DNA of 64,000 bases, from assembly GCA_964408025.1 (NCBI GenBank), contig CAYOXX010000004.1, positions 4,148-68,147 of the forward strand. Reading direction: 5' to 3'. The stretch is from an uncultured Acidobacteriota bacterium (GTDB taxonomy: Bacteria; Acidobacteriota; DATKUA01). Shown in pieces: positions 547 to 61,476 of this stretch. The notes beneath the pieces were generated by a model. The model had not been told where the DNA came from and searched no databases. It saw only the letters and a list, made by a program, of their open reading frames with translations. Position 1 is the first letter of the stretch, and the number at the start of each line of letters is the position of its first letter. The translations under genes and the position numbers were made by a program.

Positions 547-724
547 CTCAAGCGGGGCCCAGGCCAGCCGCCGGCAATCCAGGATAAAATCAGCCGGGTT
601 GGAGAAGTATCAGGCTCGATACGCTCTGCTCGGAACCGAAAATGCCTACAGAACACCAATGTGTTATCTTGTTTCCCGTAATCCAACAACGGGGTCAACA
701 TATTCGCAGCTATAGGAAAAGGAG

Positions 725-2056: not shown

Positions 2057-2083
2057 TCTGATCGGTTTTCCAGTTGACTGGGA

Positions 2084-3436: not shown

Positions 3437-3610
3437 CGCACCCCTCCCGTCCGATTCCCCAACACTGTGCGGACAGTTTAGCAAACCCAAACGCGGCGGC
3501 GCACCAACCGCTCTAAGGCAAATGCGTTTCCCGGAGAACGAGCACCGCTTGACGGTCAACGAGCGGTTACGATATAACCTGAGTGGATCCCGTCACTTCA
3601 AGGTCTCCTT

Positions 3611-4402
3611 ATGTCAACAGCGCTCACCCCCGAACTCTACGAGTTGGCATTCAGCTACCGCGACTACGAGGCAGAGGTCGACTTCATCGAGCTCTGCTGG
3701 CAGAGGCACGCCAGCACCGATAATACGTGTGTGCTCGACATCGCCTGCGGCATCGGCGAGCACCTGCATCAGCTCTGCCTGCGCGGATACGACTGCTGCG
3801 GATTCGACATCGACGAGCGGATGGTCGAGTTCGCAACGGCGAAGTTCGCGGCCGAGGAGCTTCCCATTGAGGTCTGGACTGCTGACATGCGCGACTTCGA
3901 GGTCGAGAGGCCCTTCGGGCTGGCCACAAACATGCTCACCTCGGCTAACCTGCTGCTCACGAACGAGGCTCTCGAAAACCACCTGCGCCTGGTCGCGCGG
4001 GCACTGGAGCCGGGCGGCATCTACCTGCTGGAGATGTTCCACCCGCGCGCGTACGGCTTCGGGCCGGACATCCTGGCCTACGCCTGGGAGGTCCAGCGGG
4101 ACGACGTGCACCTGGAGTGTGACCTGCACCACCAGCGGAAGCCGCTCGATCCTATCAGGCAGTGCCAGGAGACCACGATGCACATAGCAGTAACCAAGGG
4201 CGGAAAGACTGAAGTGATCGAACACCGCCGCCGGCAGCGCGTCTACCTCTATCACGAATTCCGGGCTATCGTCGGCTGCACGCGGAACTTCGAGATTCTC
4301 GACTGCTTTGGCGCCTTCAATGCGGACAGGAAGCTCGACAATTCCCAGCGCTCCTGGAGGATGATCCCCGTCCTCCGCAGAACCGAGGAGGATGTTAAAT
4401 GA
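3611..4402 (+). CDS. class I SAM-dependent methyltransferase
   Basis: It carries methyltransferase motif I (VLDIACGIGEHL) and a downstream acidic motif. The stop overlaps the next gene's start as ATGA. Confidence 0.6.
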   Translation: MSTALTPELYELAFSYRDYEAEVDFIELCWQRHASTDNTCVLDIACGIGEHLHQLCLRGYDCCGFDIDERMVEFATAKFAAEELPIEVWTADMRDFEVERPFGLATNMLTSANLLLTNEALENHLRLVARALEPGGIYLLEMFHPRAYGFGPDILAYAWEVQRDDVHLECDLHHQRKPLDPIRQCQETTMHIAVTKGGKTEVIEHRRRQRVYLYHEFRAIVGCTRNFEILDCFGAFNADRKLDNSQRSWRMIPVLRRTEEDVK

Positions 4403-6126: not shown

Positions 6127-6130
6127 ATCA

Positions 6131-7114
6131 GTGGCCGGGAAAGCCGAAACCGTCTTGATCACCGGCATCTCCGGTTTCGTCGGCTCCCACCTGTGCGAAG
6201 AGTTCCTGCGCCGAGGCCTGAAGGTCAAGGGGCTGATCCCCGAGGGGGAGGACATCTCCAACCTCGCGGCCGCGGAGTCTGAGATCCGCCTTCTCCAGGG
6301 CGACCTTCTGGATCCGGCTGGTCTCGAGCGGATCGTGGAGGAGGCCGGAGCCGATCTCATAGTCCACCTGGCCGCCGAGAGCTCGCCCGCCAGGAGTTAT
6401 TTGGATCCGGTAATCTCGTTTGAGGTCAACACTCTGGGGACGCTCCACCTCCTCGAGGCCATCCGGAAAGCGAAGCGGCCACGACGCTTCCTACTCTTCA
6501 CATCGGCCGAGGTCTACGGGGCCGCGGACCCCGCGGCGATGCCGCTGGCCGAGTCGGCGCCGCTGAGGCCGCTCAACCCCTACGCGGCCAGCAAGGCGGC
6601 GTGCCATTACCTCGGCAAGCAGTATGCTATGCACCATGACCTGCCGCTTGTTGAGGTGCGCCCCTTCAACATGATTGGGCCGCGCCAGGGCCGCGGCTTC
6701 GTACTGCCCGATTTCGCCTCCCAGGTGGCTGCGATCGTCTCCGGCCGCGCGGAGCCTCGCATTCATGTCGGCCGCCTCAGCGACCGGCGCGACTTCCTCG
6801 ACGTCCGCGACGCCGTTCGCGCAATCGCCGAACTGGCCGAGCGTGGAAGCGATGGAGAGGTCTACCACGTCTGCTCCGGCGTGGCTACGCCGGTACGACG
6901 CCTGCTCGACCTGCTGCTGGAGGCGGCCGGCGTAGAGATCGAGGTGGTGCGCGACCCGGCGCGGCTGCGCCCGACGGCGACGCCGATACTGCTAGGTTCC
7001 AACACAAAGCTGACCGAACAAACCGGCTGGGGGCCGACGATTACCCTGGAAGACACTGTCAGGGACGCCCTCGAATACTGGCTTGGGAAACCCTCTGCAG
7101 GTGACAACAATTAG
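6131..7114 (+). CDS. NAD-dependent epimerase/dehydratase (GDP-sugar 4,6-dehydratase/reductase-like SDR)
   Basis: It has a GTG start, a Rossmann motif (VLITGISGFVGSHL) and the catalytic YAASK motif. It starts 5 bp after the amidohydrolase stop. Confidence 0.65.
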   Translation: MAGKAETVLITGISGFVGSHLCEEFLRRGLKVKGLIPEGEDISNLAAAESEIRLLQGDLLDPAGLERIVEEAGADLIVHLAAESSPARSYLDPVISFEVNTLGTLHLLEAIRKAKRPRRFLLFTSAEVYGAADPAAMPLAESAPLRPLNPYAASKAACHYLGKQYAMHHDLPLVEVRPFNMIGPRQGRGFVLPDFASQVAAIVSGRAEPRIHVGRLSDRRDFLDVRDAVRAIAELAERGSDGEVYHVCSGVATPVRRLLDLLLEAAGVEIEVVRDPARLRPTATPILLGSNTKLTEQTGWGPTITLEDTVRDALEYWLGKPSAGDNN

Positions 7115-7243
7115 AGATCGAGTCTTAATATCGAACTAATATGTTGTTTAATGCGTCTTATTTAATCGGCTTGTAAAATGCCGGTGGCAACGGAGAGAAA
7201 GCAAACTGAAGCGTATCACTTAAAACAGCTGAGGACCTGTCCC

Positions 7244-8026
7244 ATGAACAGAATTCCGAATACGGCGTTGGCATTAGCCGCGCTCGCGGCGGCTACCGCG
7301 CTGCCGTTCGCCTCGGCCCAGCAGGAGCCGACGGCGCTGGAGATCATCCAGCGCATCGAGGACCTGATGCGCAGCGACCGCTCATACGCCGAGCTGACGA
7401 TGGAGATCATCACTCCTGACTGGCAGCGGACGGTCACCATGCGCAGCTACGACGACCGCGAGGGCGAGCGCAGCTTCATCCACATCCTCAGCCCCAGGCG
7501 CGACGAGAACACCACCTTCCTGCGCGTCGAGTTCAACCTCTGGATGTACCTGCCGCGCGCCGAGCGGACGATCCGCATCCCACCATCGATGATGCTCAAC
7601 AGCTGGATGGGAAGCGACTTCACCAACGACGACCTGGTCAGGGAAAGCTCGTACATCGATGACTACGACCACGAGCTTACCGGCATCGAGGAGCTCGAGG
7701 AGCTGGACGCCATCCCCTGCTACCACATCGTTATGCGCCCGAAGCCCGACGCGCCGGTCACCTGGGGCTGGGTCGAGGTTTGGATAAGCGTCGAGCCGCT
7801 GCTGCCGGTGCTCTACCGCTACTACAACCAGCGCGGCGAGCTGCGTAAAGAGATGATCATGAGCGAAATCGGCGAGATGGACGGCCACCTTCTGCCCACC
7901 GTATGGACCATGCGGACGATGGACAAGCCGGGCCATAGCACCGTCATCCGGCTCGAGAGCATGGACTTCGACGCCGACATTCCCGACCGGGTGTTCACGC
8001 GCCAGCACCTGCGCAACCCGCGATAG
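7244..8026 (+). CDS. LolA-like outer-membrane lipoprotein-sorting family periplasmic protein
   Basis: A signal peptide (ALALAALAAATALPFASAQ) is followed by a LolA-like fold signature (ITPDWQRTVTMRSYDD...FLRVEFNLWMYLP). It is the first gene of a four-gene co-directional cluster. Confidence 0.55.
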   Translation: MNRIPNTALALAALAAATALPFASAQQEPTALEIIQRIEDLMRSDRSYAELTMEIITPDWQRTVTMRSYDDREGERSFIHILSPRRDENTTFLRVEFNLWMYLPRAERTIRIPPSMMLNSWMGSDFTNDDLVRESSYIDDYDHELTGIEELEELDAIPCYHIVMRPKPDAPVTWGWVEVWISVEPLLPVLYRYYNQRGELRKEMIMSEIGEMDGHLLPTVWTMRTMDKPGHSTVIRLESMDFDADIPDRVFTRQHLRNPR

Positions 8027-8035
8027 GAGGAAACG

Positions 8036-9292
8036 ATGCGTATTTTCCTTGCCATCGCCTGGCGAAACGTGATGCGCAACAAAAAGCGCTCCTTCATCAC
8101 CATCTTCGCCATCGCCTTCGGCCTCATCTTCCTGATCTTCATGTGGTCGATCATCGACGGCGTCTACCCGGTGATGATCGACAACATGACCGGCCTGTTC
8201 ATGGGCCACATGGAAGTGAGCACCCCGGAATTTGTCGATCGGCCGGCGCTGGAGAACGCGATCCGGGACGGCGACCCGGTGATCGCCGCGGTGCGGGACC
8301 ACCCGAACGTGGAAGCCTACTCGCCCCGGATGCGCTTGTTCGGCCTGCTCAGCTATGCCGAGAACAGCCAGGGCGGCGTCGTCATCGGCATCGACCCGGA
8401 GCTGGAGCGCGAACTCGGGCGCCTTGATGATGACGAGTTCATCATCGAGGGCCGCTTCATCACCTCCGACGACGTGCGGGGCGCCGTCATCGGCGCCACG
8501 CTGGCCAAGAACCTCGACGCCAGACTGGGCGAGCGTATCTTCTTCCTCACCCAAGGTCCGCACCAGGAGCTGGCATACACCAACCTCAACGTCATCGGAA
8601 TCCTGAAATCCCACGTCCCCGAGATCGACGGCTCGATGGTCTTCGTACGCCGGGCTGACCTGACCGACGCCGATGTGCTGGACATGCCGGGGGCGGTCAC
8701 CGACGTCGCCATCCGCCTGCGCGACCAAAACCTGCTGGAAGAAACCAAGGCCGAACTGCAGTCGGCGCTGGAGGGGCACGACGAGCAGAAGCTGGTACGC
8801 ACGTGGAAGGAGATCGTCCCCTGGATCGAGCAGGCGCTGGCGATGGACGAGGCTTTCTTCTACTTCATCGTTCTAATCATGTTCACCGTCGTGGTCGCCG
8901 GCATCCTCAACACCGTTCTCATGTCGGTGATGGAGCGCACGAGGGAGTTCGGCATCATGCGCGCCCTGGGCACCAAGGGATGGCAGATCGCAACCGTAGT
9001 CAGTCTTGAATCGGTGATGCTCGGCGTCATCGGGCTGGTGATCGGGGCCACCTGCGGCATCGTCCTCACGCTGATCCTCGGCCAGACGGGACTCGACCTC
9101 TACAGCGGTATCGACGAGTCATTCATGGGAGAGTTCTACTTCTTCGAGACGAGAATCTACCCGCTTCTCAACCTCGACCACTTCATCACCACCTGCGTCG
9201 CCGTGATGGTCATGATTGTCCTGGTCTCCCTCTACCCCGCGCGCAAGGCGGCAAAACTCGAACCGGTAGTAGCTATCAAGGCCCTGGGGTGA
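8036..9292 (+). CDS. ABC transporter permease, FtsX/MacB-LolCE-like with large periplasmic domain
   Basis: It has an AGGAGG RBS and an N-terminal TM helix. A roughly 200-aa periplasmic domain is followed by three C-terminal TM helices (FtsX fold). Confidence 0.7.
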
Positions 9293-45682: not shown

Positions 45683-45995
45683 TTTCACCACAGAGACCAC
45701 AGAGGAAGCGATTGTAGGGGAATCCTTAAGGGCTCCCGAACGAGGTGACGGCAGGTGTGTATTACCCGCGGGGGGCCTAAAGGCTCCCCCCTACGCCGAA
45801 GCGAGGCGCTAGGCACACGCCTGTAGGGGAGTCCTGAACTTGTCCGCAGCGGCGATGCCCCCCTTAAACACCCGGGGCGGCATAAAGGCCGCCCCTACAA
45901 TCGGACGAGATAACCTATGAAATCATTGTAGGGGGGTAGGAACTTGTCCGCCGCGGCGGATGCCCCCCTCCTAGTTAGCGGTCAATATCCGGCGT
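45683..45995. repeat. cluster of REP-like hairpin repeats (TGTAGGGG...CCCCTACA type and GGGGnGnC-TAAAG-GnCnCCCC-TACA type)
   Basis: The unit caccacagagaccacagaggaagcgattgtaggggaatccttaagggctccc occurs here and at 49985-50190. Several hairpins carry a TAAAG loop and a CTAC(A/G) tail. Confidence 0.6.
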
Positions 45996-46009
45996 ACGAG
46001 CGGCGTGGA

Positions 46010-47587
46010 CTAGTAGCCGGGCAGCTTGGAGAAGTAGAAGCTGTGGTACTGTCCACTGCTCCCCTCGAGCCTGAAGAGGTTCAGGCTGCGCAGGGCGGGA
46101 CCGAAAGCGCGCAGCAGCGGCCCGCCGCTCCATATTTTCCCCTTGTAGTTTGACCCCGCCAGGCGGTCGACCTGGCCGCTGCCGGGGTCGAAGGAGTAGC
46201 AGTCGAGCTGCAGCTCCTGCCAGGTGCGGGAGCCGTGAAGCTCTCTATAATACCCGGAACGCGAGTGGGTGATGAGGACGCGGCCGCCGTAGGTAAGCAC
46301 AACATAGTTGGAGAAAAAACTGAAGGTTTCATAGGATAACCGGTCAGGAGTGCCCCAATACGGCCTGAACCAGGGGGCTGCCTTGAACTTGGCACGCTTC
46401 CCCATCCTCCCGCCTTCGGCGGAGATCTGCTGATAGAAGTAAGTGTAACTCTTTGAGTTGCTTCCTATATATGGGCCTTCAGCGGGCGCGGCATGGGTGT
46501 AAAGCAGGTAGAGAGGCTCGCCCCCCTGCGTCGGGCTCGGGGGCACGCTAACGCGCGGCAGGAACACCGGGCTGACGAATGTTGGGTAGTGGATATTCGT
46601 CCTGTCGTTGGCGATCTTGCGCATCCTCATATCGAAGGAGTTTCCACCTTGGTCCGGTGTCACCCGCAGGACGTGGACCTGGTAGCCGATCTGGTCCACA
46701 TAGTCTCGCGGGTCGTAGGGCATCCGCTTCAGCAGCGTTACGACACCGGGAACCATCCAGCTCTCGCCGTTCCAGGCCGGCCTGTAGGGGCGGAAGAGGC
46801 GGTAATTGCCGCCCTTCGGCAGCCTCACGTCGGCAGCGCCCGGCTCCTGCAGCACGCCGGTCGAGGAGACCTCCATGAAGTAGGCCTCCCCCGCACGTCT
46901 CCCATAGAGGTCGTCGGAACTCTCATTTATGTTGGCGCCGGCGAACACGCCGACCACGTCGCCGCGCACTCCCGCGGTGAGCCAGAGCATTTGGTAGTAC
47001 ATGTCCTCCGGAGCGTTTATCTCCAGCAGTGTCTCGAAGTCGGTGGTCAGCTTGCCGGATGCGTTGAACCTTGCCGCTGCGAAGCGGCCCACGTCGCTTA
47101 CGCCCTCGGGGTAGTAGGCGATGAGCAGGAGCCCGTGATCGGGCGAGGGCGCCTGTTCGGCGAACCAGCAGGCGGCGGCCTGGCTTATCCTGCCTCCGGT
47201 CATCGTCAGCACGTCGGTCGCGGTGCCGACTTTGCCCTTGCTGTTGAGTGTGAAGGAGCGGAGCGTGTAGATGTCGAGCGACGGTGGCACATCCGTCTCC
47301 TCCATGTTCAAGGCGAAGACGACGCTGGAGTCGGCGCCCACCACTGCCCAGGCCAGCAACCGCACGTGGTGCTCGAAGCCCGTCACCTTGACCTTCTTGA
47401 GCTTATACTTCGCCGTCCCCGGCGCGGCCACGTCGTCCGCCGCCGCCGCACCCGCCAGCAGCGCCAGCGCTGCCATTACGCCCACAAAACTGCGGATAAG
47501 CTTGCTTTTCATGGCGAATTCCCCACTAGCCTGATAAAACTCGTTGAATATAGTCAGCAATGTAGCCGTTGTTAGACGCGATGGCAA
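46010..47587 (-). CDS. hypothetical secreted protein, tandem paralog A
   Basis: It has a signal peptide (LALLAGAAAADD). It is about 75% identical to the next gene along its full length, and no domain is recognised. Confidence 0.55.
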   Translation of the reverse strand: MPSRLTTATLLTIFNEFYQASGEFAMKSKLIRSFVGVMAALALLAGAAAADDVAAPGTAKYKLKKVKVTGFEHHVRLLAWAVVGADSSVVFALNMEETDVPPSLDIYTLRSFTLNSKGKVGTATDVLTMTGGRISQAAACWFAEQAPSPDHGLLLIAYYPEGVSDVGRFAAARFNASGKLTTDFETLLEINAPEDMYYQMLWLTAGVRGDVVGVFAGANINESSDDLYGRRAGEAYFMEVSSTGVLQEPGAADVRLPKGGNYRLFRPYRPAWNGESWMVPGVVTLLKRMPYDPRDYVDQIGYQVHVLRVTPDQGGNSFDMRMRKIANDRTNIHYPTFVSPVFLPRVSVPPSPTQGGEPLYLLYTHAAPAEGPYIGSNSKSYTYFYQQISAEGGRMGKRAKFKAAPWFRPYWGTPDRLSYETFSFFSNYVVLTYGGRVLITHSRSGYYRELHGSRTWQELQLDCYSFDPGSGQVDRLAGSNYKGKIWSGGPLLRAFGPALRSLNLFRLEGSSGQYHSFYFSKLPGY

Positions 47588-47639
47588 GCGTGAGCAGGCA
47601 CTTAATTACACAAGTTTATTGCTAAGTCGCCCCGCCTAG

Positions 47640-47880
47640 AGTGTTGTGAGTCAAGCAAGCTCTACCTGTAGGGGAGTCCTTAAGGGCTCCCGTCTCCAAG
47701 TCATTGTAAGGGAGTCCTGCACTTGTCCCACAAAGCTTCAGCGTAGTCGGAGGCGGATGGTCCCCTTGAACACTCCGGGCTGCATAAAGGCCGCCCCTAC
47801 AATCTGACGAGATAACCTGTAAAGTCATTGTGAGGGGGGTCGTATATGCCCCCCTCTGAGTCAGCTGGTCAACATCCGGC
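47640..47880. repeat. REP-like hairpin repeat cluster between the paralog genes
   Basis: Elements here are tgtaggggagtccttaagggctcccg and ggctgcataaaggccgcccctaca, near-identical to those at 45822-45900. Confidence 0.6.
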
Positions 47881-47896
47881 GCGCGGGCGGTGTGGT

Positions 47897-49435
47897 CTAG
47901 TAGACGGGCAACTTGGAGAAATAGAAGCTGTGGTATTGTCCATTGCTCCCCTCGAGCCTGAAGAGGCTAAGGCTGCGCAGGAGGTAAGGGTAGGGGTAGC
48001 CGAAGGGGCGGATCAGCGGCCCGCCGCTCCACACCTTTCCCTTGTAGTTTGCCCCCGCCAGGCTATTGACCTGGCCGGTGCTGAGATTGAAGGAGTAGCA
48101 GTCCAGCTGTAGCTCCTGCCAGGTGCGGGATCCGCCGCTGAGCTCGGTATAGTAAGCGGAGCGCGAGTGGGTGAGGAGGGCGCAGCCGCAGTAGGTAAGC
48201 ACAAGATAACTGGAGAAAAAACTGAAGGTTTCTCTGGATTTGCGGTTGGGAGTGCCTAAATACGGCCTGAACCAGGGGGTTGCGTTGAACTTACTACGCT
48301 CTCCGATCCTTTCGCCTTCGGCGGAGATATGCTGATAGAAGTAGGTGTATCTCTTTGAGTGGGGACCTACAAGCGGGCCGTTTGCGGGTGCGGCATGGGT
48401 ATAAAGCAGGTTGAGCGGCTCGCCTTCCTGCACCGGGCTCTCGGTCATGGGAGTGTGCGGCAGGTACGGCAGGAACACCAGGCTGACGTATGTCGGCCAG
48501 GGGACATTCGTCCTGTCGCTGGCGATCTTGTGCATCTCCATATCGAAGGAGTCCCCGGCCTGGTTCGGTGTCACCCTTAGGACGTGGATCTGGTAGCCGA
48601 TCTCGTCCACCCAGTCTGGGCGTTCCCAGGGCACCCGCTTCAGCAGCGTTACGACACCGGGAACCATCCAGCTCTCGCCGTTCCAGGCCGGTCCGTAGGG
48701 GCGGAAGAGGCGGAAATCGCCGTCCCTCGGCAGCCTCACGTCGGCAACGCCCGGCGTCCGCAGCACGCCGGTCGAGGATAACTCCATGAAGTAGGCCTCA
48801 CTTGCGCGACTGCCCCACAAGTCGTCGTAGTCCATCTCTAATATATCGGCGCCGGCGAACACGCCGACCACGTCACCGCGCACTCCCGCGCTGAGCCAGA
48901 GGTCTTGAAAGACCATGTCCTCCGGAGCGCTTATCTCCAGCAGTGTCTCGAAGTCGGTGGTCAGCTCGCCGGATGCGTCGAAGCTTGCCGCCGCGAAGCG
49001 GCCCACGCTTCTTTCATCGTCTAAGCCTTCGGGGTGGTAGGCTATGAGCAGGAGCCCGTGCGCGGTCGAGGGCGTCGACTGGTCGTCGAACCAGAAGGCG
49101 GCTGCCTGGCATACCCTGCCTCCGTCCATCATCAGCAGGTCGTTCGAGGTGCCGACCTTGCCCCTGCTGTTGAGGGTGAAGGAGCGGAACGTGACGATGT
49201 CGGGCGCCGTCGACCTCAACGGCTTCTCAGTGTCCAAGGCGAAGACAACGCTGGAGTCGCCCACACCTGCCCAGGCCAGCAATTGCACCTGGTGCTCGAA
49301 GCCCGTAACCTTGACCTTCTTGATCCTATAGTTCGCAGTCCCTGATGCGGTCACGTCGTCCGCCGCCGCCGCACCAGCCAGCAGCGTCAACGCTGTTAAT
49401 AAGCCAATAAAACTGCGGATAAATTTACTTTTCAT
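47897..49435 (-). CDS. hypothetical secreted protein, tandem paralog B
   Basis: Same family as 46010-47587. The 5' and 3' ends are about 90% identical at the nucleotide level. Confidence 0.55.
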   Translation of the reverse strand: MKSKFIRSFIGLLTALTLLAGAAAADDVTASGTANYRIKKVKVTGFEHQVQLLAWAGVGDSSVVFALDTEKPLRSTAPDIVTFRSFTLNSRGKVGTSNDLLMMDGGRVCQAAAFWFDDQSTPSTAHGLLLIAYHPEGLDDERSVGRFAAASFDASGELTTDFETLLEISAPEDMVFQDLWLSAGVRGDVVGVFAGADILEMDYDDLWGSRASEAYFMELSSTGVLRTPGVADVRLPRDGDFRLFRPYGPAWNGESWMVPGVVTLLKRVPWERPDWVDEIGYQIHVLRVTPNQAGDSFDMEMHKIASDRTNVPWPTYVSLVFLPYLPHTPMTESPVQEGEPLNLLYTHAAPANGPLVGPHSKRYTYFYQHISAEGERIGERSKFNATPWFRPYLGTPNRKSRETFSFFSSYLVLTYCGCALLTHSRSAYYTELSGGSRTWQELQLDCYSFNLSTGQVNSLAGANYKGKVWSGGPLIRPFGYPYPYLLRSLSLFRLEGSNGQYHSFYFSKLPVY

Positions 49436-49974
49436 TGCGGAATCCCTCTCTAGCCAAATAAAAAATCGTTAAACCAGCAACCTGGCGCCTGTTAGACTTG
49501 AATTCAAGCGTGAGCACGCGCCTCTACGTATTTGCAGATAAATCCATAGTCGCCCCCCCCAGAGGAAATCCAATTCATCCCCTCCAAGGAATTGGTAGAA
49601 AAGCAATTAAAAGCCTAATGATCAAGGCAAAGAGTCCGAGCCCAGGTTATTAGGCTCTATGCAACCATATTGCTTTTCAACCAGACTAAAACAGTAAGTA
49701 GCTTATTAGATATTAGGGAGGCTGGAAGTAACGGTGGTTACACCATGATTGATACTAATCTCTTGGCTATCCTGCGACACCGCATATTTATGTGGCCATG
49801 CGCGGGATTCATTTCAGGTCGTCCGCGAGGACGGCAGCCTGTAATGGGTGGGATCCTGAGGGGGGCCTTTACTTGTCCACCGTCGCTGAAGCTTTGGCGG
49901 ACTTGTCCGCCGTAGCTTTAGCGGAGGCGGATGCCCCCCTCTCTTCGCTGGCAGTCAATATCGGCAGAGGGAAG

Positions 49975-50260
49975 TAACCCACAGCTCCCGTTTTCACCAC
50001 AGAGACCTCAGAGACCACAGAGGAAGCGATTGTAGGGGAGTCCTGAATTTATCCGCCTCTGGCGGAGGGCTCCCGTGCCATTGTAGGGGAGTCCTTAAGG
50101 GCTCCCGTTTTCACCACAGAGACTCGAAGACGCGCCGTGGTGGGCACAGAGACCACAGAGGAAGCGATTGTAGGGGAGTCCTTTAGGGCTCCCGTTTGAA
50201 AATGAATCACTGTTTCGGGGGCGCTAAAGCACCCCCCTACACCAAGATTAGCGCATTATA
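49975..50260. repeat. REP-like hairpin repeat cluster (three copies of the caccacagag...tgtaggggagtcc unit)
   Basis: It is directly repeated within the cluster and shared with 45683-45735. Confidence 0.6.
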
Positions 50261-50564
50261 AAAGCTTGTGTTGGCTTCTTAATCCGCCGTCCTCACCGCA
50301 CACCTCGGCGCGCCCTGGCGGGGCGTATCGACGCTACCCCTGGTCGGCGTCCGCCGACCTCGGGTAGTCCTTCCTCGACCTGAACTCGATGATCCCCACC
50401 GGGCACACCGCCGCTCAACGCCCATCCCGCACGCACTTCTCCGTATCTACATAAAAACCAATCGCTGCTCCCTCCAGAGAAAATACAATTCAGCCCTTCC
50501 AAGGGATCGCCAGAATTGCACTCAAAAGGTGCAAATGCACGGTGGAGCGTAGACATGTAGCGGC

Positions 50565-50748
50565 AACTGTAACGACGACCTGTAGCGGCGGCTGTAGCGG
50601 CGACTTTTAAGTCGCCTACTCCCGCCGCCGGCGGGAGCAATTCATCGCGCAGTGGCGCGATTAGTCGAGCTGAAGCTCGACGCTACCTGCCGCTCCTTTC
50701 CTGTAGCGGACACCTTTAGGTGGCCTGGTCGGCCTAAAGGCCGACAAA
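50565..50748. repeat. composite REP array (ctgtagcggcggctgtagcgg / gcgattagtcgagct..agctcgacgctac / cacctttaggtg / gtcggcctaaaggccgac)
   Basis: It is an array of short perfect hairpins. The same blocks recur in a different order at 55745-55925, and the last block recurs again at 61338-61361. Confidence 0.65.
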
Positions 50749-50751
50749 TAA

Positions 50752-51042
50752 TTATGCAAACACTCCGTCCAGATTCTTAGCGGACTTCAGCCTTTCATAA
50801 GTCGTGTAGCGCAAGTTCTGCGGAGCCCTGACTTTCCCGCCTTTGATCATTTTAATCGGCTTTATCTCCTTGGCCGGCTCGGCGAAGTAGATAATCACCT
50901 TGCCCGAGTCTTTGTATGGCTCGATGCTCTTTACGGGAGCGACATGAGTGATCGCCGAAATCGGGGCTACCTGGTACGAGGCTATATACTTGATCTGTTC
51001 GATCATACTGGCGTGAATGCGTACCTTGTACCAGCAACACAA
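50752..51042 (-). CDS. hypothetical small protein encoded in AT-rich DNA
   Basis: It is AT-rich, about 85-96 aa (MIEQIKYIASYQ...YTTYERLKSAKNLDGVFA), and I recognise no motif. Confidence 0.35.
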   Translation of the reverse strand: MCCWYKVRIHASMIEQIKYIASYQVAPISAITHVAPVKSIEPYKDSGKVIIYFAEPAKEIKPIKMIKGGKVRAPQNLRYTTYERLKSAKNLDGVFA

Positions 51043-51086
51043 GTCATGGGTCTACATTGATCATTCTCTATCGACATTTTCTATAA

Positions 51087-51284
51087 TTACTTTTTGCTTT
51101 TCATTTTCTTGCACTCCTCACACAACGGTAAATTCCCCGTGCCAGTTTTTCTATATTTTCTTTCTATGTTATTTCCTTTTGTGCAGTCACCATAAATATG
51201 ATGCACAGTACCGTGTTTAGAGTAATAAGAATTTACTTTTCTTGGCATTTCACACTCCTTGATATCAATCAACAACAGATTCAA
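51087..51284 (-). CDS. hypothetical small Cys-containing (zinc-ribbon-like) protein
   Basis: It reads MPRKVNSYYSKHGTVHHIYGDCTKGNN...LPLCEECKK, with paired Cys/His. It is AT-rich. Confidence 0.3.
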   Translation of the reverse strand: MNLLLIDIKECEMPRKVNSYYSKHGTVHHIYGDCTKGNNIERKYRKTGTGNLPLCEECKKMKSKK

Positions 51285-51308
51285 CAGTTATACTACCCAC
51301 TATTTAGC

Positions 51309-51572
51309 GGTGCCCGGGGATGAGGTCCCTATTCATAGTAATACCTCATTTTGGCTTGTGCCGCCTATGCGGACGGACTCTCGTACCGTCTTGTCGAGTA
51401 TGACCTCTGACAGGTACTGTCATTGGTCCTCGACGTGGCGGCTTCTCAGAACATCTGTTCTTCGATTTTGCCATAAAATAGCACCTCCTTTCTAGGTGAT
51501 AGCTTCACCGTGCCGTTTCAGTGTTACTATCCCGAGTCAATGGAGGTTCCCCGGGCACCTAAACTCATTCTA
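51309..51572. repeat. element bounded by a perfect 12-bp inverted repeat (GGTGCCCGGGGA ... TCCCCGGGCACC), 240 bp apart
   Basis: The arms lie at 51309-51320 and 51561-51572. No ORF spans the interior, which is mixed-GC. Confidence 0.5.
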
Positions 51573-51657
51573 ATGATTTTTCTTACACTTGTCAAGCCGA
51601 AGTATTCCAAGGTGACTCTTTAATGATAGGATATTGAAAAGTTATTTTAAATCACTA

Positions 51658-51756
51658 CTATGATACGCTCTCCTCGACTATCGCTATTTCTTCATCTGTC
51701 AGACCGTAAAGCTCGTAGACGAGCTGGTCGATCTGGCGGTATCTTGTTTTTCCCAT
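51658..51756 (-). pseudogene. vestigial copy of a Type IIG RM enzyme C-terminal tail (MGKTRYRQIDQLVYELYGLTDEEIAIVEESVS*)
   Basis: It has host-like GC. It shares the 17-nt identical run ctcgtctacgagcttta and the motif LVYELYG(L/M)TDEEI with the 3' end of the RM gene at 52648. Confidence 0.55.
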
Positions 51757-51803
51757 TTAATTATATCATCTTCTTTACAAATTATCTAGCCATATAAGAT
51801 TAT

Positions 51804-52613
51804 TCATATGAGTTTTAATTCATGCAATTTTTCTGTTATTTCATCTCTATAATTTCTCGGAACTATCAAGCCATAACCAACAACCTCTCCATTCTCTCCT
51901 TTTCTAAAATTATCGAAATACTTTCGAAAATACTTATTAACATTTTCATCCCTTTCACCTGTAAAACACCACTTAAAAAACTCTCCCGTTGAGCCTACTA
52001 AACAATCGTTAATCTGAAGTGCAAAAGAAACCCTTGTAGAAGTACAAACCAAACAAGGACATGCACAAAACCTTCTAAGTGGTTTTACAATATTTTGTTC
52101 AAATCTATACCCTTCATAATATGCTTTTTGATATACATTCAAATATTCCATTATTTTAATTTTTGAATCAGGCAACCAATCAAATACAGTGTCCAGATAT
52201 GGATAATCATCTTTTTCTTTCAATAAATTATAATTCTGCTCCAAATCAAATGATAGTCTCTGCAATATATTTGTAAATGACCATTTCCAACTTTCCGCAC
52301 GATATTCTTTAGACCCTTTCCATACAAATGACATTATAAGTGTCATATTTAAATCTTTTGGCAATTTAAAGATGTCAGATCTTAACTCTGGTATTTTTTC
52401 CCTTAAATCTCTAAGTTTTTCACATTCCTTATCCATATAATTATATTTAATAACATCAGATAAGTCAAGCTGATATTTTTTCTTTATTCTTGCTACAGAT
52501 AAATCTAATTTACGTAACATTGACCTTGGTATATAATATCCCCCAACAAGCATTCCATAATCTAAGTCATATTCATCGAGAAAACAAATAATGCTCTCAG
52601 AAAGCGTACTCAT
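51804..52613 (-). CDS. hypothetical protein (269 aa) encoded in AT-rich DNA immediately downstream of the RM gene
   Basis: It has about 30% GC, no recognisable motif, and starts 35 bp after the RM stop on the same strand. Confidence 0.5.
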   Translation of the reverse strand: MSTLSESIICFLDEYDLDYGMLVGGYYIPRSMLRKLDLSVARIKKKYQLDLSDVIKYNYMDKECEKLRDLREKIPELRSDIFKLPKDLNMTLIMSFVWKGSKEYRAESWKWSFTNILQRLSFDLEQNYNLLKEKDDYPYLDTVFDWLPDSKIKIMEYLNVYQKAYYEGYRFEQNIVKPLRRFCACPCLVCTSTRVSFALQINDCLVGSTGEFFKWCFTGERDENVNKYFRKYFDNFRKGENGEVVGYGLIVPRNYRDEITEKLHELKLI

Positions 52614-52647
52614 AAATCACCTATCACATTGAATATAAAAACGTACT

Positions 52648-55638
52648 TTATTCTGTATTATTCTCAACAATTTTAATTTCCTCATCCGTCATACCATAAA
52701 GCTCGTAGACGAGTTTGTCAAGATGGCGATCAGTGGCCTCGATCTGGCGCTGGAGTCGTGTTATTTCGTTTGGATCTTTTGACATCTCAATTCTCATATT
52801 TTTGTCTATAAGAATCTCTACTAATTCAACTATTCTATCATATATTATCTTATTATCTACCTTGTCCACGGTGGGGATAGGCAGCGATTTTAATTGACTT
52901 ATTTTTATTTGTGGAAAGGCATCATGGAACTCATCATAATATGCTCGAATAAAAAAGGAAATAAGACGGCTACCGAGTATCCCAGCAATAAATTGTGCTT
53001 TGAATTTTCCATTTTTAGGAATAGTTATATAGACTTGTTGATCCGCTACTGAATTAGTTTTTTCAATAGTAACAACTAGACGATCACCAAGAATCTTGCG
53101 TGAATAAACCCTTTCCCCTTGGAAAAATTCAGGTTTTCTTGGCTCTGCAAGCCATAGACCATATCTAATATATTCAGTAGGTTTGGGAGGTGTAAATCTG
53201 CGAAGGTCACGGCCGTAAATAAATGCTCTATAACCTTCTCCTCCCAATTTGCTATGATATGGCTTTTCATCTAAGTCTCTTTTGATTTGAGGCCCTTTAC
53301 CAAACGCCGTTTGTCCATATCCTCCTAAGCGGTATGAGTGTACTCCACGAGTAACATAAGCAAATCTCTGTAATTCCGGATAACTATCCTTTAATCTTTC
53401 TACCAAAATAGCGCTAGTACTATCTAAAACTGTTGAAATTGGTCTGGAACCATCAAGATATAGTTTGACCTCATGTGTGGCAATCTCAATAATATTTCCA
53501 TTACACATATTCTTAATTGAAAATATATCCGATGGCTTAGGGCGTTTTTGTAAAGTGTAAATAATTGTATCAACCGTCAGACCTGAAAAAACATTAGCCC
53601 CTGGAGTCGTTATGCACAAATCATTACTATAACTAAGAATGAAAGATCTCGTGCTATATGAATATGTATTAGAGAGCCATACGTTAGGTACTATTAAGCC
53701 TACCCGTCCGAAATTGCGACTAAGCATGTGGGCTTTCTCCATAAATATAGAAAACATGTCAAGTTGATAAGGTGAACTCTTATAAATTCTACCAAGATAA
53801 ATCTTAGACTCTTCGGTGATATTTAGATCCTTCCAATCTCTCCCAAAAACATACGGCGGATTCCCTATAACTACGTCAAACCCTCCCTTCTTCATGATTT
53901 CGGGGAATTCTGTGTCCCAGTCAAATGGGTTGATGCGGCGGAGCTGCTCGTCGTCGAACAGGACTCCCTGGTGGTGGTCGAAGAAGTCGGTGCCGATGAG
54001 CGAGTTTCCGCACTTGATGTTGCCGCCCAGGTCGGGCAGGGCGCGCTCACGGAAGAGTTTTAGCTGCTGCTCGAGCGATTCCTTGCTCTCGCCCTCGAGG
54101 GCCTTGAGCAGCAGGTTGAGCTTGGTGACCTCGACGGCCTGGGGGTCGATGTCGACGCCGTGGATGCAGTCGAGCAGTAGTCGCTTTTTTTCGGCCGTGG
54201 AGAGGAACCACTCGCCTCCCCTGCCGCGGAAAACCTTGTTCTTGTGCTTTTCGGGATTGTTGGCGGCGTACCAGTCGCGGCAGTAGTCGAGCAGGTACTG
54301 GTAGGCGCCGATGAGGAAGGAGCCGGAACCGCATGCGGGGTCGAGTATCTTGAGCTTATGAACATGGCTCGCGGTCAGGGGTTTATTAGATTTCTTACCC
54401 TTGACGGCCGAGGTTGAACCTTCCACAAGCGGGCGGCCCGCCGCGGCGGGCTCGCCCCTACAGCCCTCGCACAGTTTGCCGACGGTGTTTTTGACGATGT
54501 AGTCGACGATGTAGGTGGGGGTGTAGTAGACGCCGCCGGCCTTGCGGACCTCCGGCTTCTCCTCGACCTTGGCGTGGTGTGCGGGCGTGAGGCGGATCAC
54601 CTTGCCGAGGAACTGCTCGTAGACGTGGCCGAGTATGTCGGCGCCGATCATCGAGAACTCGTAGGGCGACTCGGGGTAGTAGAGGCCCTTGAAGACGGTT
54701 TTGAGTGCGGCGTCGTCGATCTCGAGCTCGTGCGTTAGGCGGTCGGGCTCGGTGGCGGCGCCGCGGTCCTTCTCGAAGTGGAAGAGGCCGGAGTTGTAGC
54801 GCTCCTCGGCGCGGTCGAAGAGCTCGAGCAGGCGCCCGTAGGCGTTGGTGCCGCTGCCCAGGGCCTCGAGGCGGCCGTAGCCCTCGATGCCGCGGTCCTC
54901 GCAGATGCGCAGGAAGATGATGCGGTCGATGGTGCGCTGGACTGCGAAGTTTAGCTCGTGGACGGAGAGGCGCGGGTTGCGCAGTGCGATGTTGCGGGCC
55001 AGCAGGTCGCGCCAGCACTCGATCTCCTTGAGGAACTCCTTATCGACCGGCGCGGTGCCGCGAATGCGCTTGGATTCGGCGTAGCGGTCGAAGCTGCCCT
55101 GCAGGACCGCCTCCTTGCCGAAGAGGCCGTGGATGTCGTCGAACTGCTCGGGGTACTGCTCGAAGCCGATGTACTGGACGCGGGCTGTCGAGACCTTGTC
55201 ACTCTCGTGCGGGCGCACGCGGCAGTCGTAGACGGCGAGCTCCTCGAAGTCGGTGAGGATAGAGAGTTTCAAGTTGGCGCTCCAGCCGTAGCGGCGGAGC
55301 TGGTAGGGCAGGTGCGGGTTGTCGCGGATGTTCAGCGCCGGCTTTTTTGCCTCGACGAAGAAGATCTTTTCGGAGCCGATGCGGAAGCAGTAGTCGGGAG
55401 CCTTGGTGCCGCCGGCGACCTTGATCGAGTCCTCGTGAATGACGTCTTTGTACTGCTCCGACGTGTGCGACTTGTTGTAGATGTCCCAGCCGAGGGCCTC
55501 GAAGAAGGGGTCGATGAACTCGACGCGCAGTTGCGCCTCATTGTAGGCCGGGCTCTTAAAACCCTTCAGCCCGCGCCGGAAGGCCTCTATTAATTCCTCG
55601 GTCCGGCGCAGGCCCTCGTCTTTCGGCACTTGGAACAT
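52648..55638 (-). CDS. Type IIG restriction-modification enzyme (fused PD-ExK endonuclease plus gamma-class N6-adenine DNA methyltransferase plus C-terminal TRD)
   Basis: A PD-(D/E)xK-like motif (PDYCFRIG...IFFVEAKKP) lies at aa 81-99. SAM motif I (ILDPACGSGSFL) is at aa 431-442 and catalytic motif IV (GNPPYV) at aa 592-597. A C-terminal region of about 400 aa follows, ending with the tail LVYELYGMTDEEI. The 996-aa size fits the MmeI-like class. Confidence 0.8.
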   Translation of the reverse strand: MFQVPKDEGLRRTEELIEAFRRGLKGFKSPAYNEAQLRVEFIDPFFEALGWDIYNKSHTSEQYKDVIHEDSIKVAGGTKAPDYCFRIGSEKIFFVEAKKPALNIRDNPHLPYQLRRYGWSANLKLSILTDFEELAVYDCRVRPHESDKVSTARVQYIGFEQYPEQFDDIHGLFGKEAVLQGSFDRYAESKRIRGTAPVDKEFLKEIECWRDLLARNIALRNPRLSVHELNFAVQRTIDRIIFLRICEDRGIEGYGRLEALGSGTNAYGRLLELFDRAEERYNSGLFHFEKDRGAATEPDRLTHELEIDDAALKTVFKGLYYPESPYEFSMIGADILGHVYEQFLGKVIRLTPAHHAKVEEKPEVRKAGGVYYTPTYIVDYIVKNTVGKLCEGCRGEPAAAGRPLVEGSTSAVKGKKSNKPLTASHVHKLKILDPACGSGSFLIGAYQYLLDYCRDWYAANNPEKHKNKVFRGRGGEWFLSTAEKKRLLLDCIHGVDIDPQAVEVTKLNLLLKALEGESKESLEQQLKLFRERALPDLGGNIKCGNSLIGTDFFDHHQGVLFDDEQLRRINPFDWDTEFPEIMKKGGFDVVIGNPPYVFGRDWKDLNITEESKIYLGRIYKSSPYQLDMFSIFMEKAHMLSRNFGRVGLIVPNVWLSNTYSYSTRSFILSYSNDLCITTPGANVFSGLTVDTIIYTLQKRPKPSDIFSIKNMCNGNIIEIATHEVKLYLDGSRPISTVLDSTSAILVERLKDSYPELQRFAYVTRGVHSYRLGGYGQTAFGKGPQIKRDLDEKPYHSKLGGEGYRAFIYGRDLRRFTPPKPTEYIRYGLWLAEPRKPEFFQGERVYSRKILGDRLVVTIEKTNSVADQQVYITIPKNGKFKAQFIAGILGSRLISFFIRAYYDEFHDAFPQIKISQLKSLPIPTVDKVDNKIIYDRIVELVEILIDKNMRIEMSKDPNEITRLQRQIEATDRHLDKLVYELYGMTDEEIKIVENNTE

Positions 55639-55744
55639 GCTAACTCGCCGCCCGCGATGCGTTGTCTGACCTAAGAATAGCGTATTAAGTTATTTATGTG
55701 AAGAGAGCGGTTCTACCGTTTATTTCGACAGTGAACTGTTTCTG

Positions 55745-55925
55745 CGGCATGTAGAGGCCGTAGCGGCGGCTGTAGCGGAGATTGTAGCGGCCACCTTTAG
55801 GTGGCCTAGTCGGCCTAAAGGCCGACGCTACCGGCTGCATATTCCCGCCTGCGGCGGTAGCAACTCATCGAGCAGTTGCGCGATTAGTCGAGCTCCGCCT
55901 GAGGCGGATAAATTCAGCTCGACGC
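55745..55925. repeat. composite REP array homologous to 50565-50748
   Basis: It contains gtagcggcggctgtagcgg, cacctttaggtggcctagtcggcctaaaggccgacgctacc and gcgattagtcgagct...agctcgacgctac. Confidence 0.65.
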
Positions 55926-55932
55926 TACATTT

Positions 55933-61297: not shown

Positions 61298-61476
61298 CGC
61301 TGACCCGAACTTGTCAGCCTTTGGCTGAGGTCGCCTAGTCGGCCTAAAGGCCGACGCTACCATCAGTTTAGTGCGGAGCACTCATCTGTTTTTGCTTTTA
61401 CTGAACGCGTCAATTGGCGATAATATTGTAGATTCAGACACGATAATTGGGCCCATTTCGAGGAGAGCGGTTTGCC

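Follow-up and report, generated by a model that had tools for sequence, protein, structure and literature searches.

Where does the variable DNA of this locus begin and end, and do the REP arrays beside it take part in its exchange? The window (the whole stretch of 64,000 nucleotides analysed, from an uncultured GC-rich bacterium represented by metagenome contigs only) contains an AT-rich segment that lies between two REP arrays and runs into a type IIG RM gene. It belongs to known kinds of hypervariable defence locus, though with some novel features, and the segment is probably the strain-variable part of a chromosomal defence locus around a long-resident RM gene. GC content is 0.29-0.46 from 50800 to ~53900 against 0.56-0.67 on either side, in agreement with the AT-rich segment of about 50750-53930 given in the preliminary description. 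The GC-rich patches that it placed at 51300-51760 are rich only relative to their surroundings (0.41-0.46 GC), and correspond to a folded element (51309-51559) and a gene relic (51673-51740). The REP sequences nearest to the segment are:

50543-50748, same strand as the right array: left REP array, in the order 12-nt GTAGCGG tandem units, GGCGAC hairpin, block B, block A
55749-55928, same strand as the left array: right REP array, in the order GTAGCGG units, block A, block B
54431-54462, minus strand: GTAG-tagged REP hairpin lying in frame within the RM coding sequence, where it falls in the linker that precedes methylase motif I

As first described, the arrays hold the same hairpin blocks in changed order, and they form direct repeats 5.2 kb apart. 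Block A, which in the left array combines a CACCT hairpin and a GTCGGCC hairpin, is shared over 44 nt (50702-50745 and 55783-55826, 95% identity), and block B over 58 nt (50614-50671 and 55837-55894, 86% identity). The closing half of block B, AGCTCGACGCTAC, lies at 50674-50686 and 55916-55928, and in the right array a 21-nt hairpin, ccgcctgaggcggataaattc, is nested within the loop. The 12-nt units are found at 50557, 50582 and 50594 on the left and at 55760, 55772 and 55784 on the right. The region is indeed REP-rich, with 29 copies of GTAGCGG in the window versus 9.45 +/- 2.7 after shuffling (0 of 100 shuffles reach 29). However, the blocks are not confined to variable DNA: a copy of GTCGGCCTAAAGGCCGACGCTAC lies at 61338, between two conserved housekeeping genes, block A is found again at an unrelated locus (L032), and a single hairpin is present on at least 119 metagenome contigs.

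The locus itself is not invariant. Three haplotypes, namely that of the window, a sister (L004/L208) and a third (L213), have flanks that are 96-100% identical and divergent content from ~49.5 to 53.85 kb, so that the content between the arrays varies as the proposed hotspot implied. They were recovered in several separate assemblies, three of which carry neighbouring ENA accession numbers (ERZ25073477, ERZ25073485, ERZ25073496). The arrays delimit the variable DNA only in part. On its inner side (50748/50749) the left array ends exactly at a breakpoint relative to both L004 and L213, but this array is not an outer limit, as variation extends beyond it to 49516/49856. The right array is no boundary at all. 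It lies upstream of the minus-strand RM gene, as stated earlier, between the GNAT stop codon (55933) and the RM start codon (55638). In L004/L208 it occupies the same place but is internally rearranged; the changes include a REP-associated tandem duplication of 180 nt, within which lies the 3' end of GNAT. The 1.8 kb that follow it are 93-98% identical at the nucleotide level in the sister haplotype, and the true edge of the AT-rich block is located inside the RM gene, exactly after the NPPY codons (53850/53851). The gene and its downstream neighbours are arranged as follows:

53851-55638, minus strand: resident 5' part of the RM gene, codons 1-596
52648-53850, minus strand: exchanged 3' part of the RM gene, codons 597-996
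51804-52613, minus strand: passenger ORF269, remote DUF3800-like, AT-rich (GC3 0.23)
51673-51740, minus strand: tail relic of the 3' end of an earlier RM allele, encoding ...RQIDQLVYELYGLTDEEIAIVEESVS*

The RM gene (52648-55638, 996 aa) matches the Pfam families HSDR_N, N6_Mtase, MmeI_Mtase and Eco57I and the PADLOC model REase_MTase_IIG (E 5e-191). Codons 1-596 cover a PD-(D/E)xK nuclease, a helical region and methylase motifs I to IV (NPPY), have a host-like GC3 of 0.88 and are syntenic in the distant relative L124. Compared with the sister protein (P0003, from L004), identity is 97% over residues 1-300 and 82% over 301-569, or 89% overall up to NPPY; with P0052/P0058 it is 70-74%. The in-frame REP of the linker is present as two units in L004, giving 19 extra residues, and is lacking in L124 and L125.

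Codons 597-996 encode the methylase C-lobe, a TaqI_C recognition domain and an AT-rich C-terminal tail of their own. At NPPY, GC3 falls from 0.88 to 0.28 within a few codons while GC2 is unchanged (0.37 vs 0.35); the fall is also present in L004, L124 and L125. Protein identity to P0003 beyond this point is only about 31-35%, and nucleotide homology of all four alleles stops directly after CCGCCGTATG. L124 and L125, a more distant pair, are 98% identical in protein sequence before NPPY and 26% after it; their identity returns at GACGAGGAGATAGCGATAG, ~40 nt before the stop codon, and the following gene is identical. Fourteen further allele pairs of the family show the same collapse at VIGNPPY, with recovery in the last 45-70 residues, and among pairs with at least 80% N-part identity (n=130) the C-part is at most 40% identical in ~45%. 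Replacement of this block would most likely change the DNA sequence recognised by the enzyme. Crossover points are placed here solely by where similarity ends. At synonymous sites, the NPPY and tail 'arms' show no more conservation than other conserved blocks do, and therefore nothing indicates a dedicated DNA recombination site.

In composition, ORF269 matches the contiguous C-half. Its family is rare (7 clusters), two of the seven members match PF12686 (best E 1.2e-4), and the AF2 model (pLDDT 81.6) has RNase H2 as its sole weak fold match. Homologues elsewhere are solitary, unlinked to RM genes and in unrelated genomes. Aligned with the live tail (52663-52728), the relic downstream of ORF269 shows 77% identity over 66 nt, and the comparisons of the two give 77-83%, versus 91% for the tail of the L004 allele. 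Haloarchaeal plasmids carry methylase genes whose 3' ends match the relic as well. The live tail forms a compositional continuum with the new C-half and ORF269. Across the family, copies of the tail occur downstream of the gene in 12 of 64 loci (1-4 copies each, all on the same strand, in unrelated phyla and one archaeon) and upstream in none of the 64. The genes enclosed between tail and relic encode TIR, PIN-like, DUF433/DUF5615, 2TM and DUF5677 proteins.

The DNA farther left is composed of small elements and remnants:

51309-51559, minus strand: strongly folded element of 250 nt, with a perfect 12-nt inverted repeat that closes it
51087-51248, minus strand: 53-aa Cys-rich small ORF with its own ribosome-binding site
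50752-51037, minus strand: 3' end left from a truncated 333-aa gene, of which the sister haplotype has an intact copy
50351-50451: conserved segment 'X', 82% identical to L004 6914-7014 and 92% to L213
49880-50250: clustered copies of a second REP family (TGTAGGGGAGTCC...), among them a long form with a nested hairpin
49791-49875, plus strand: DUF3800-VII RNA match (Rfam RF02967), 48.1 bits vs a gathering score of 36.2

The folded element has an RNA fold z of -10.4 on the minus and -7.1 on the plus strand and contains a 42-aa basic ORF with a ribosome-binding site (51346-51474); a promoter scan places a promoter-like site nearby (51595-51567), and no Rfam family matched with E < 1. It is absent from L004, while the portion reached by the L213 contig (window 51487 leftward) is present. 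The 53-aa ORF has 154 representative homologues (E <= 1e-3) in 1.84 billion proteins and matched no Pfam or PHROG family. Homology of the 333-aa gene remnant to L004 (5490-5778, 87% nucleotide identity) ends 4-6 nt past the stop codon, at the start of the REP array. The slot at the inner edge of the array holds an EVE-nuclease gene in L004 and an HhH-GPD-like (glycosylase-like) gene in L213, the latter standing exactly at the position of the window's left array. The position of segment 'X' relative to the REP array changes between haplotypes, and the second REP cluster is missing in L213. The DUF3800-VII RNA falls within the variable zone: L004/L208 have no match at the Rfam gathering score, and the L213 breakpoint at 49856 cuts within the RNA, the L213 copy being below that score. 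REP arrays are structurally unstable, and several breakpoints on the left side of the locus (50749, ~50527-50552 and 50328) fall at them.

These observations are likely to reflect an exchangeable DNA-recognition half of the resident RM gene, accompanied by hitch-hiking defence genes. The gene would be a chimera, its first 596 codons inherited with the neighbourhood and the part after NPPY drawn from an AT-rich accessory pool and replaced as a block, most likely by recombination with DNA of another allele. Conserved coding sequence ending at NPPY may serve as the left anchor, and the right join would lie at or beside the conserved tail. In the window haplotype, the incoming block appears to have brought its own tail and ORF269 and to have joined just upstream of the old tail, which would survive as the relic. 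The folded element, the two small ORFs and the truncated 333-aa gene probably represent a second cargo slot with debris. The REP arrays are GTAG-tagged extragenic palindromes that appear to have spread through the intergenic DNA of the lineage and even into the RM linker.

In all probability the arrays neither bound nor carry the exchanged module. That they are the ends of a composite unit, mobilised by REP/RAYT or excisable through its repeats and carrying the whole RM locus, is highly improbable, even though they are direct repeats with common blocks of 44 and 58 nt, are polymorphic, meet the breakpoints listed above and are associated with the 180-nt duplication in L004/L208. The sister haplotype conserves the right array together with the adjoining 1.8 kb of RM sequence, the variable block begins within the RM gene, and the same blocks lie at unrelated sites. 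Moreover, L124 retains the right-flank gene order (CDP-OH_P_transf ... GNAT-RM) with no REPs between GNAT and RM; only three GTAG/CTAC-tagged hairpins occur in the 22.9 kb examined there, and its two REP-like hairpins sit upstream of GNAT. No RM-less haplotype was found among those compared. As to the RAYT genes that the preliminary description suggested seeking, neither the window nor the fetched loci of the lineage contain a RAYT-like ORF, and the one weak match was in an unrelated genome (L134). An assembly chimera or misjoin at repeats can practically be dismissed as the source of the composition switch: the contigs are metagenomic and that of L004 ends inside a REP array, but the junction recurs in five independent assemblies of the window haplotype (99.95-100% identity), the ORF remains open across it with every catalytic motif present, and the same kind of switch is seen in 82 other loci.

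The age and the unit of the exchange are less easily fixed. No donor of the C-half was found among 5.8 billion proteins (best match 65%), so that an import need not be recent. It is conceivable, if less probable than not, that the post-NPPY classes are ancient alleles under balancing (phage-driven) selection that drifted AT-ward in place: deprived of homologous partners, they would escape GC-biased gene conversion and codon selection, and the sharp edge would mark the end of homogenising recombination. The C-half classes are discrete (~30-35% identity between them), and in practically all hosts they are lower in GC3 than the N-half, by a median of 0.18 and with no difference below -0.02. This deficit is one-sided in 68 named genomes and extends to AT-rich hosts, with a mean difference of 0.14 at flank GC below 0.45 (Wilcoxon p 1e-12); it could be in-place decay of long-maintained alleles. 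Against this, the GC3 drop at NPPY is very large and abrupt, the adjoining ORF269 shares the composition and has its relatives in unrelated genomes, and the tail relic shows that physical replacement happened. The two readings are compatible, since an AT-rich, slowly recombining accessory pool can also supply replacements. It is rather doubtful that passenger genes are small mobile cassettes that target and duplicate the conserved tail, by insertion with long target duplication or Campbell-type integration of a one-tail circle, the RM half-swap being separate. Tail-cassette-tail arrays do occur in the 12 loci, on one strand and never upstream, with repeats of 53-250 nt (78-96% identity) around single small genes or toxin-antitoxin-like pairs. 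However, the cassettes examined contain no recombinase or transposase gene, and the composition of the window's live tail, together with its low identity to the relic, is more in keeping with one 2.1-kb block than with a separate insertion at a later time.

Block replacement at one locus resembles the substitution and movement of target-recognition domains in RM genes (Furuta et al., 2011, PMC3077401; Furuta et al., 2014, PMC3983042): alleles share conserved flanks around unrelated recognition modules, exchange is ascribed to recombination at conserved sequences flanking the module, and new methylation and cleavage specificity would be the expected result. Here, however, the module belongs to a single-polypeptide Eco57I/MmeI-like enzyme, includes the methylase C-lobe, begins right at the NPPY codon, is conspicuous through a GC3 drop of 0.6 because the host is GC-rich, and arrived with a passenger gene while leaving a relic of the old gene end. 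The predicted architecture, with an N-terminal PD-ExK nuclease, a helical connector, a gamma-class N6-adenine methylase and a C-terminal recognition domain, is that of type IIG enzymes of the Eco57I/MmeI/BpuSI type (BpuSI structure, PMC3185434). Insertion with long target duplication at RM loci (Furuta, Abe and Kobayashi, 2010, PMC2853133) likewise places a gene-sized insert between target-derived direct repeats of tens to hundreds of bp, but in this family the duplicated target is always the RM gene's own 3' end, the inserted genes are small and resemble defence or toxin-antitoxin genes instead of being RM units, and up to four copies occur in series.

The arrays resemble GTAG-tagged REP elements and BIME-like composite arrays (Di Nocera et al., 2013, PMC3733652; Nunvar et al., 2010, PMC2817692) in their GC-rich hairpins of 20-40 nt that bear GTAG at one flank or CTAC at the opposite one, location largely outside genes, several sequence families per genome, and clustering of opposite-orientation units into arrays that vary between close strains. 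They differ in the 'long form', a second hairpin (GAAYTTRTCCGCC-loop-GGCGGAG) nested in the loops of several REP families, and in the copies lying in frame within a protein-coding gene. Rickettsia palindromic elements, which Ogata et al. are said to have described in 2000 as inserted in frame in genes, reportedly are also short palindromes tolerated in ORFs, where they add a surface or linker peptide; the repeat family and lineage are different here, and among the sequences analysed a single gene carries such copies. As REP arrays appear to be dispersed between genes throughout this genome and coincide with no more than some of the points of rearrangement, the locus is best regarded as a well-dissected example of a known process.

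Both REP arrays that the preliminary description placed around the AT-rich segment exist and carry the same blocks in a different order. The left (50543-50748) and right (55749-55928) arrays are made of short GC-rich hairpins on the same strand, and have tandem 12-nt GTAGCGG units in common. Block A, of 44 nt (TGTAGCGG-CACCTTTAGGTGG-CCT-GTCGGCCTAAAGGCCGAC), is 95% identical between the two arrays; block B, of ~75 nt (TCCCGCC hairpin ... CGCGATTAGTCGAGCT..AGCTCGACGCTAC), shows 86% identity over 58 aligned nt. The order is B-A in the left array and A-B in the right, where a 21-nt hairpin is nested within the loop of block B. The GTAGCGG count in the window is 29, against 9.45 +/- 2.7 in shuffles. 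The palindromes have stems of 7-9 bp and loops of 2-6 nt (e.g., at 50599, 50664, 50728, 55789, 55809, 61338, 44386 and 45874) and are short (about 20-40 nt), GC-rich and imperfect, as is characteristic of REP/BIME elements; GTAG or CTAC stands beside the stem in all families, within TGTAGCGG-, TGTAGGGG- and -GCTAC / -CCTAC tags. A GTAG on one flank of the hairpin, or a CTAC on the opposite one, is the tag that defines the main REP super-family (PMC3733652; PMC2817692). The families in the window are TGTAGCGG-..., TGTAGGGGAGTCC..., CGTGGGGCCTAAATGGCCCCACCTAC and GTCGGCCTAAAGGCCGACGCTAC. Most intergenic regions from 44.3 to 61.4 kb contain members of these families, and the REP at 61338 lies in the spacer of two housekeeping genes that are adjacent in L124, a more distant allele. 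The REP-laden spacers upstream of two tandem paralogues without family assignment (45980-47590 and 47867-49450; 525 and 512 aa, 81-89% nt identity) have been duplicated along with the genes (45854-45936 vs 47756-47838). Elsewhere, a large ORF at the beginning of the window contains, across 25-1700, five to seven units of ~144-150 nt (GDTWEWDG...W...MAYDS...VLFGG) and looks like a beta-propeller-type repeat protein.

A metagenome scan found a single REP hairpin on at least 119 contigs, mostly of other bacteria; the matches listed belong mostly to another REP doublet family, one found in bacteria of soils and sediments, with the GTAGCGTCGGCC hairpin in common. Among the metagenome matches listed, the composite block A occurs only at L032 and L062, and the copy at L032, an unrelated locus in the sample that also yielded L208, is 100% identical. 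No REP-associated tyrosine transposase (RAYT) was detected by a HUH...YxxNP motif scan of the window and the fetched loci of the lineage, the sole weak match being in an unrelated genome (L134). Many units, from several different REP families, also occur in a 'long form': their loop encloses a second hairpin, GAAYTTRTCCGCC-loop-GGCGGAG in each case, which looks like a small element inserting into REP loops. The long forms, and the REPs that lie in frame within the restriction-modification (RM) gene, are as follows:

Window 45836, 45940, 50045, 61307 and 55915, minus strand: long-form REPs with nested inner hairpin
L004 (sister haplotype) 25, 205, 301, 1684 and 7120: long-form REPs with nested inner hairpin
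Window 54431-54462, minus strand: one REP unit in frame within the RM gene linker
L004 1666-1714 and 1748-1775: two REP units in frame within the sister RM gene

The two in-frame units lengthen the L004 protein by 19 residues, and neither L124 nor L125 has any. That REPs exist and are unstable is already known, and it is their translation inside an enzyme that is particular to this locus.

The AT-rich segment was correctly described, with a GC content of 0.29-0.46 across 50.8-53.9 kb and 0.56-0.67 on either side, as was the position of the right array, upstream of the RM gene; the latter, a 996-codon ORF on the minus strand (52648-55638), is the largest feature between the arrays. The notion of a recombination hotspot is also borne out, as the window, L004/L208 and L213 haplotypes differ at this locus. 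The proposal that the arrays delimit the variable segment proves mostly wrong, holding for the inner edge of the left array and failing for the right one. The left inner edge, 50748/50749, is a haplotype breakpoint: after the 333-aa gene, L004 has an EVE-PD-(D/E)xK gene, L213 a 246-aa HhH-GPD-like gene and the window the REP array. The right array stands at the same position in L004/L208. There it contains nested insertions, and a stretch of 180 nt, in which the final 75 nt of the GNAT gene are included, is duplicated in tandem. It is not a boundary of variable DNA, and the AT-rich zone starts inside the RM gene, not at the array. The order of a conserved segment (50351-50451) and the array varies among haplotypes, and L213 is without 49857-50327. 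Of eight breakpoints placed, four fall in or beside REPs, all of them left of 50.75 kb, and four in the AT-rich part, outside REPs. The window haplotype is 99.95-100% identical across five assemblies, and the three haplotypes come from assemblies bearing neighbouring ENA accession numbers, as would be expected of a polymorphism within one sampled community. Assemblies of this population include ENA ERZ25073477, ERZ25073485 and ERZ25073496 and JGI 3300028837, 3300008517 and 3300011118. Tempting as it is to take repeat arrays on either side of an odd-looking segment for its boundaries, this locus shows that they need not be.

The main 'GC-rich patch' reported within the AT-rich segment is a folded element inside an insert (51038-51672) that is absent from L004, where the first 716 nt of the 333-aa gene stand in its place; the last 289 nt of that gene are kept in the window as a '96-aa ORF' (50752-51037), at 87% identity.

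51309-51559, minus strand: folded element, 250 nt, with a perfect 12-nt inverted repeat (51309-51320 / 51548-51559)

The minus strand folds at -117 kcal/mol, compared with -71.6 +/- 4.4 for shuffles (z = -10.4). A promoter-like TTGACA-17-TAGAAT (51595-51567) lies directly upstream, and a strong ribosome-binding site (AAGGAGGTG-ATG) with a 42-aa, very basic ORF lies inside. Homologues were found neither in Rfam nor in plasmids, phages, viral contigs or any fetched locus; the element is perhaps a self-sequestering mRNA or a structured RNA of a new kind. Next comes a Cys-rich ORF of 53 aa (51087-51248, minus strand; HxYxxCxxGNxI...CxxC) from an unnamed small-protein or domain family with 154 representatives, some of which repeat the domain two to seven times per protein.

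The RM protein matches the Pfam families HSDR_N, N6_Mtase, MmeI_Mtase, Eco57I and TaqI_C and the PADLOC model REase_MTase_IIG (E 5e-191), and D82, E96, K98, LDPACGSGSF and NPPY are invariant among 67 homologues. Its N-terminal PD-(D/E)xK nuclease, its N6-adenine methylase with motifs I and IV and its C-terminal recognition domain identify it, by profile and motif, as a predicted single-chain type IIG enzyme of the Eco57I/MmeI-like kind. The BREX methylase PglX was considered and rejected, as the 99 bits obtained with the NCBIfam model BREX_1_MTaseX fall far short of its cut-off of 500; none of the genes called or scanned beside the RM gene matched a BREX family. Codons 1-596, which end at the catalytic NPPY, have a GC3 of 0.88, and codons 597-996 one of 0.28. 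GC2 is unchanged (0.37 before vs 0.35 after NPPY), and the switch at NPPY therefore concerns synonymous usage, not amino-acid content. The gene is a chimera with its junction at one codon. In a search of 5.8 billion proteins, the nearest relative is P0003, the RM protein of L004, which is 97% identical over residues 1-300, 82% over 301-569 and ~35% beyond; the best matches listed from a family-alignment scan of the genome collection are 57-64% identical.

L004, the contig of P0003, comes from a sister strain. Its left-flank 512-aa gene is 97% identical to that of the window at the nucleotide level, with most 200-nt windows at 98-100%, and in the 5' part of the RM gene most 100-nt windows show 93-98% identity, dipping to 82-87% at its 5' end, in the REP-bearing linker and beside the junction. 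Homology ends at window position 53850. In another sample, L124 and L125 are 98% identical before NPPY and 26% after. The four alleles can be aligned at the nucleotide level up to and including ...AAYCCGCCGTATG and not one base further, and in all four the GC content falls at the junction from ~0.6-0.65 to 0.31-0.44. L124, on a 741-kb contig, has the same right-flank gene order as the window (CDP-alcohol phosphatidyltransferase, metallo-beta-lactamase-fold, inositol monophosphatase, haem-binding/PDZ, an unnamed gene, GNAT acetyltransferase, RM gene), and the 5' half of the RM gene is a long-term resident. Identity between L124 and L125 resumes at GACGAGGAGATAGCGATAG, ~40 nt short of the stop codon, and both contigs continue with the same, identical PEMT/ICMT gene. 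As their variable part starts after NPPY and ends within the gene, the exchanged unit is the NPPY-to-tail block, which is predicted to encode the C-lobe of the methylase and the TaqI_C recognition domain. An unrelated recognition module thus stands at the same locus between conserved coding flanks, the hallmark of allelic substitution of a target recognition domain (TRD). Host and module differ so strongly in codon usage that the junction is legible at the level of the codon, and the locus offers an unusually clean natural example of a predicted change in enzyme specificity in which the catalytic chassis is kept. In L125 (positions 1-9000), the GNAT-RM(5' half)-PEMT block, identical to that of L124 from the same sample, comes after ArdC-N-like and many small genes in place of the chromosomal flank, which suggests that a mobile element inserted beside the L125 locus.

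Two site-specific routes to such alleles were considered and set aside. A phase-variable shufflon would call for silent alternative recognition-domain copies, inverted repeats and a site-specific recombinase close by; the ORFs scanned across 47.9-58.6 kb include neither a second recognition-domain copy nor a recombinase, and all that is present is the 66-nt direct relic of the tail. A dedicated recombination site was dropped because the two 'arms', at NPPY and in the tail, are not conserved beyond the protein requirement, their synonymous conservation (0.46 and 0.41) showing no excess over four control blocks (0.40-0.49).

The replacement has left a footprint. A second copy of the final 66 nt of the live gene (52663-52728) stands at 51673-51738. 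This tail relic is GC-normal, encodes ...RQIDQLVYELYGLTDEEIAIVEESVS-stop and shares 91% identity with the tail in L004. Between live tail and relic lies ORF269 (51804-52613), with a GC3 of 0.23 as AT-rich as the new gene half. L004 has the equivalent layout with other contents: its own C-half, a 324-aa TIR-like gene (PADLOC effector TIR, E 8e-11) and a tail relic at 4700-4762. On the simplest reading, a single block of ~2.1 kb, made up of the new C-half, its own tail and ORF269, would have replaced the old C-half, anchored on the left by homology and joined on the right at or near the tail, just upstream of the old one. The 5.8 billion proteins contain no identifiable donor of the AT-rich C-half, the best match being 65% identical. 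Plasmids of Haloarcula and Halobaculum also carry N-6 methylase genes whose 3' ends match the relic (51670-51733) at 78-82% nt identity, which shows the degree to which the coding tail is conserved across domains of life.

ORF269 is not homologous to ORF324, the L004 passenger. Its family is very small (seven clusters), and it seems remotely DUF3800-like: ORF269 itself does not match PF12686 (DUF3800), and two of the seven family members do (best E 1.2e-4). The AF2 model is confident, and the fold search returned only a weak RNase H2 match. A role as partner of the RM enzyme was rejected, since the homologues are solitary genes in unrelated neighbourhoods. A DUF3800-VII RNA (Rfam RF02967) is matched in the variable zone at 49791-49875 (+), with 48.1 bits against a gathering score of 36.2; the L004 haplotype has no match at the gathering score, and the L213 breakpoint falls inside the RNA. 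A link to ORF269 was rejected, as the RNA is not found beside ORF269 homologues; in the window the two are on opposite strands, 1.9 kb apart, convergent and non-adjacent.

The window is an extreme case of a pattern general to the family. The 115 full-length homologues include 130 pairs with an identity of 80% or more ahead of NPPY, and in ~45% of these pairs the identity beyond the motif does not exceed 40%. In 14 pairs of this kind, identity collapses directly after VIGNPPY and returns in the final 45-70 residues, with the consensus ...RQI.ATD.QID.LVYELYGLT.EEI.IVE. Across 68 loci from named genomes (within L126-L205), GC3 is lower after NPPY than before, by a median of 0.18; the difference is never below -0.02 (Wilcoxon p 1e-12), and GC2 is equal. 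The deficit is present in essentially every host, AT-rich hosts included. As a deficit of the recognition half that always has the same direction, it is relevant to the cause of AT-richness in accessory DNA.

Tail copies, too, recur in the family. The survey covered 64 loci from named genomes, each with 1 kb or more of sequence downstream. In 12 of these (L127, L131, L142, L143, L150, L157, L158, L163, L168, L181, L183 and L195), one to four same-strand copies of the RM gene's 3' end lie downstream of the gene, and none of the 64 has a copy upstream; the copies match over 23-149 nt at 70-98% identity, and the loci come from diverse phyla and one archaeon. Most of the enclosed genes examined (L142, L157, L163, L168, L181 and L195) are small and defence-like or toxin-antitoxin-like, among them:

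L142: TIR protein
L157: 2TM effector-like protein
L181 (Methanothrix archaeon): PIN-like protein with a small partner
L163: DUF433 and DUF5615
L195: DUF5677

The layout resembles an accreting cassette array. It is conceivable, if rather unlikely, that the tail acts as a portable landing pad for module swaps and for small defence or toxin-antitoxin cassettes, that each event leaves a copy behind so that [cassette-tail] arrays accrete downstream in bacteria and archaea, and that the GC3 deficit is a signature of fast turnover. If so, defence islands would grow in an integron-like manner through homology to a conserved coding sequence, without a dedicated recombinase, and the one-sided deficit after NPPY would be the compositional signature of a fast-turnover pool. 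Tail relics may also serve as a simple footprint for past module swaps and for hitch-hiking defence genes beside this enzyme family.

No description of the tail-copy pattern was found in the literature, an absence that is no proof of novelty. The pattern is like the 'insertion with long target duplication' described at RM loci (PMC2853133), with the difference that the target here is always the gene's own conserved tail. Exchange of recognition modules via conserved flanks is established for Type I S subunits, Type III genes and a Type IIG S subunit (PMC3077401; PMC3983042). Compared with these known TRD exchanges, however, the junction described here is codon-exact at NPPY and lies within a single-chain enzyme, codon usage differs to an extreme degree across it, and a gene-end relic and a passenger gene have been left behind.
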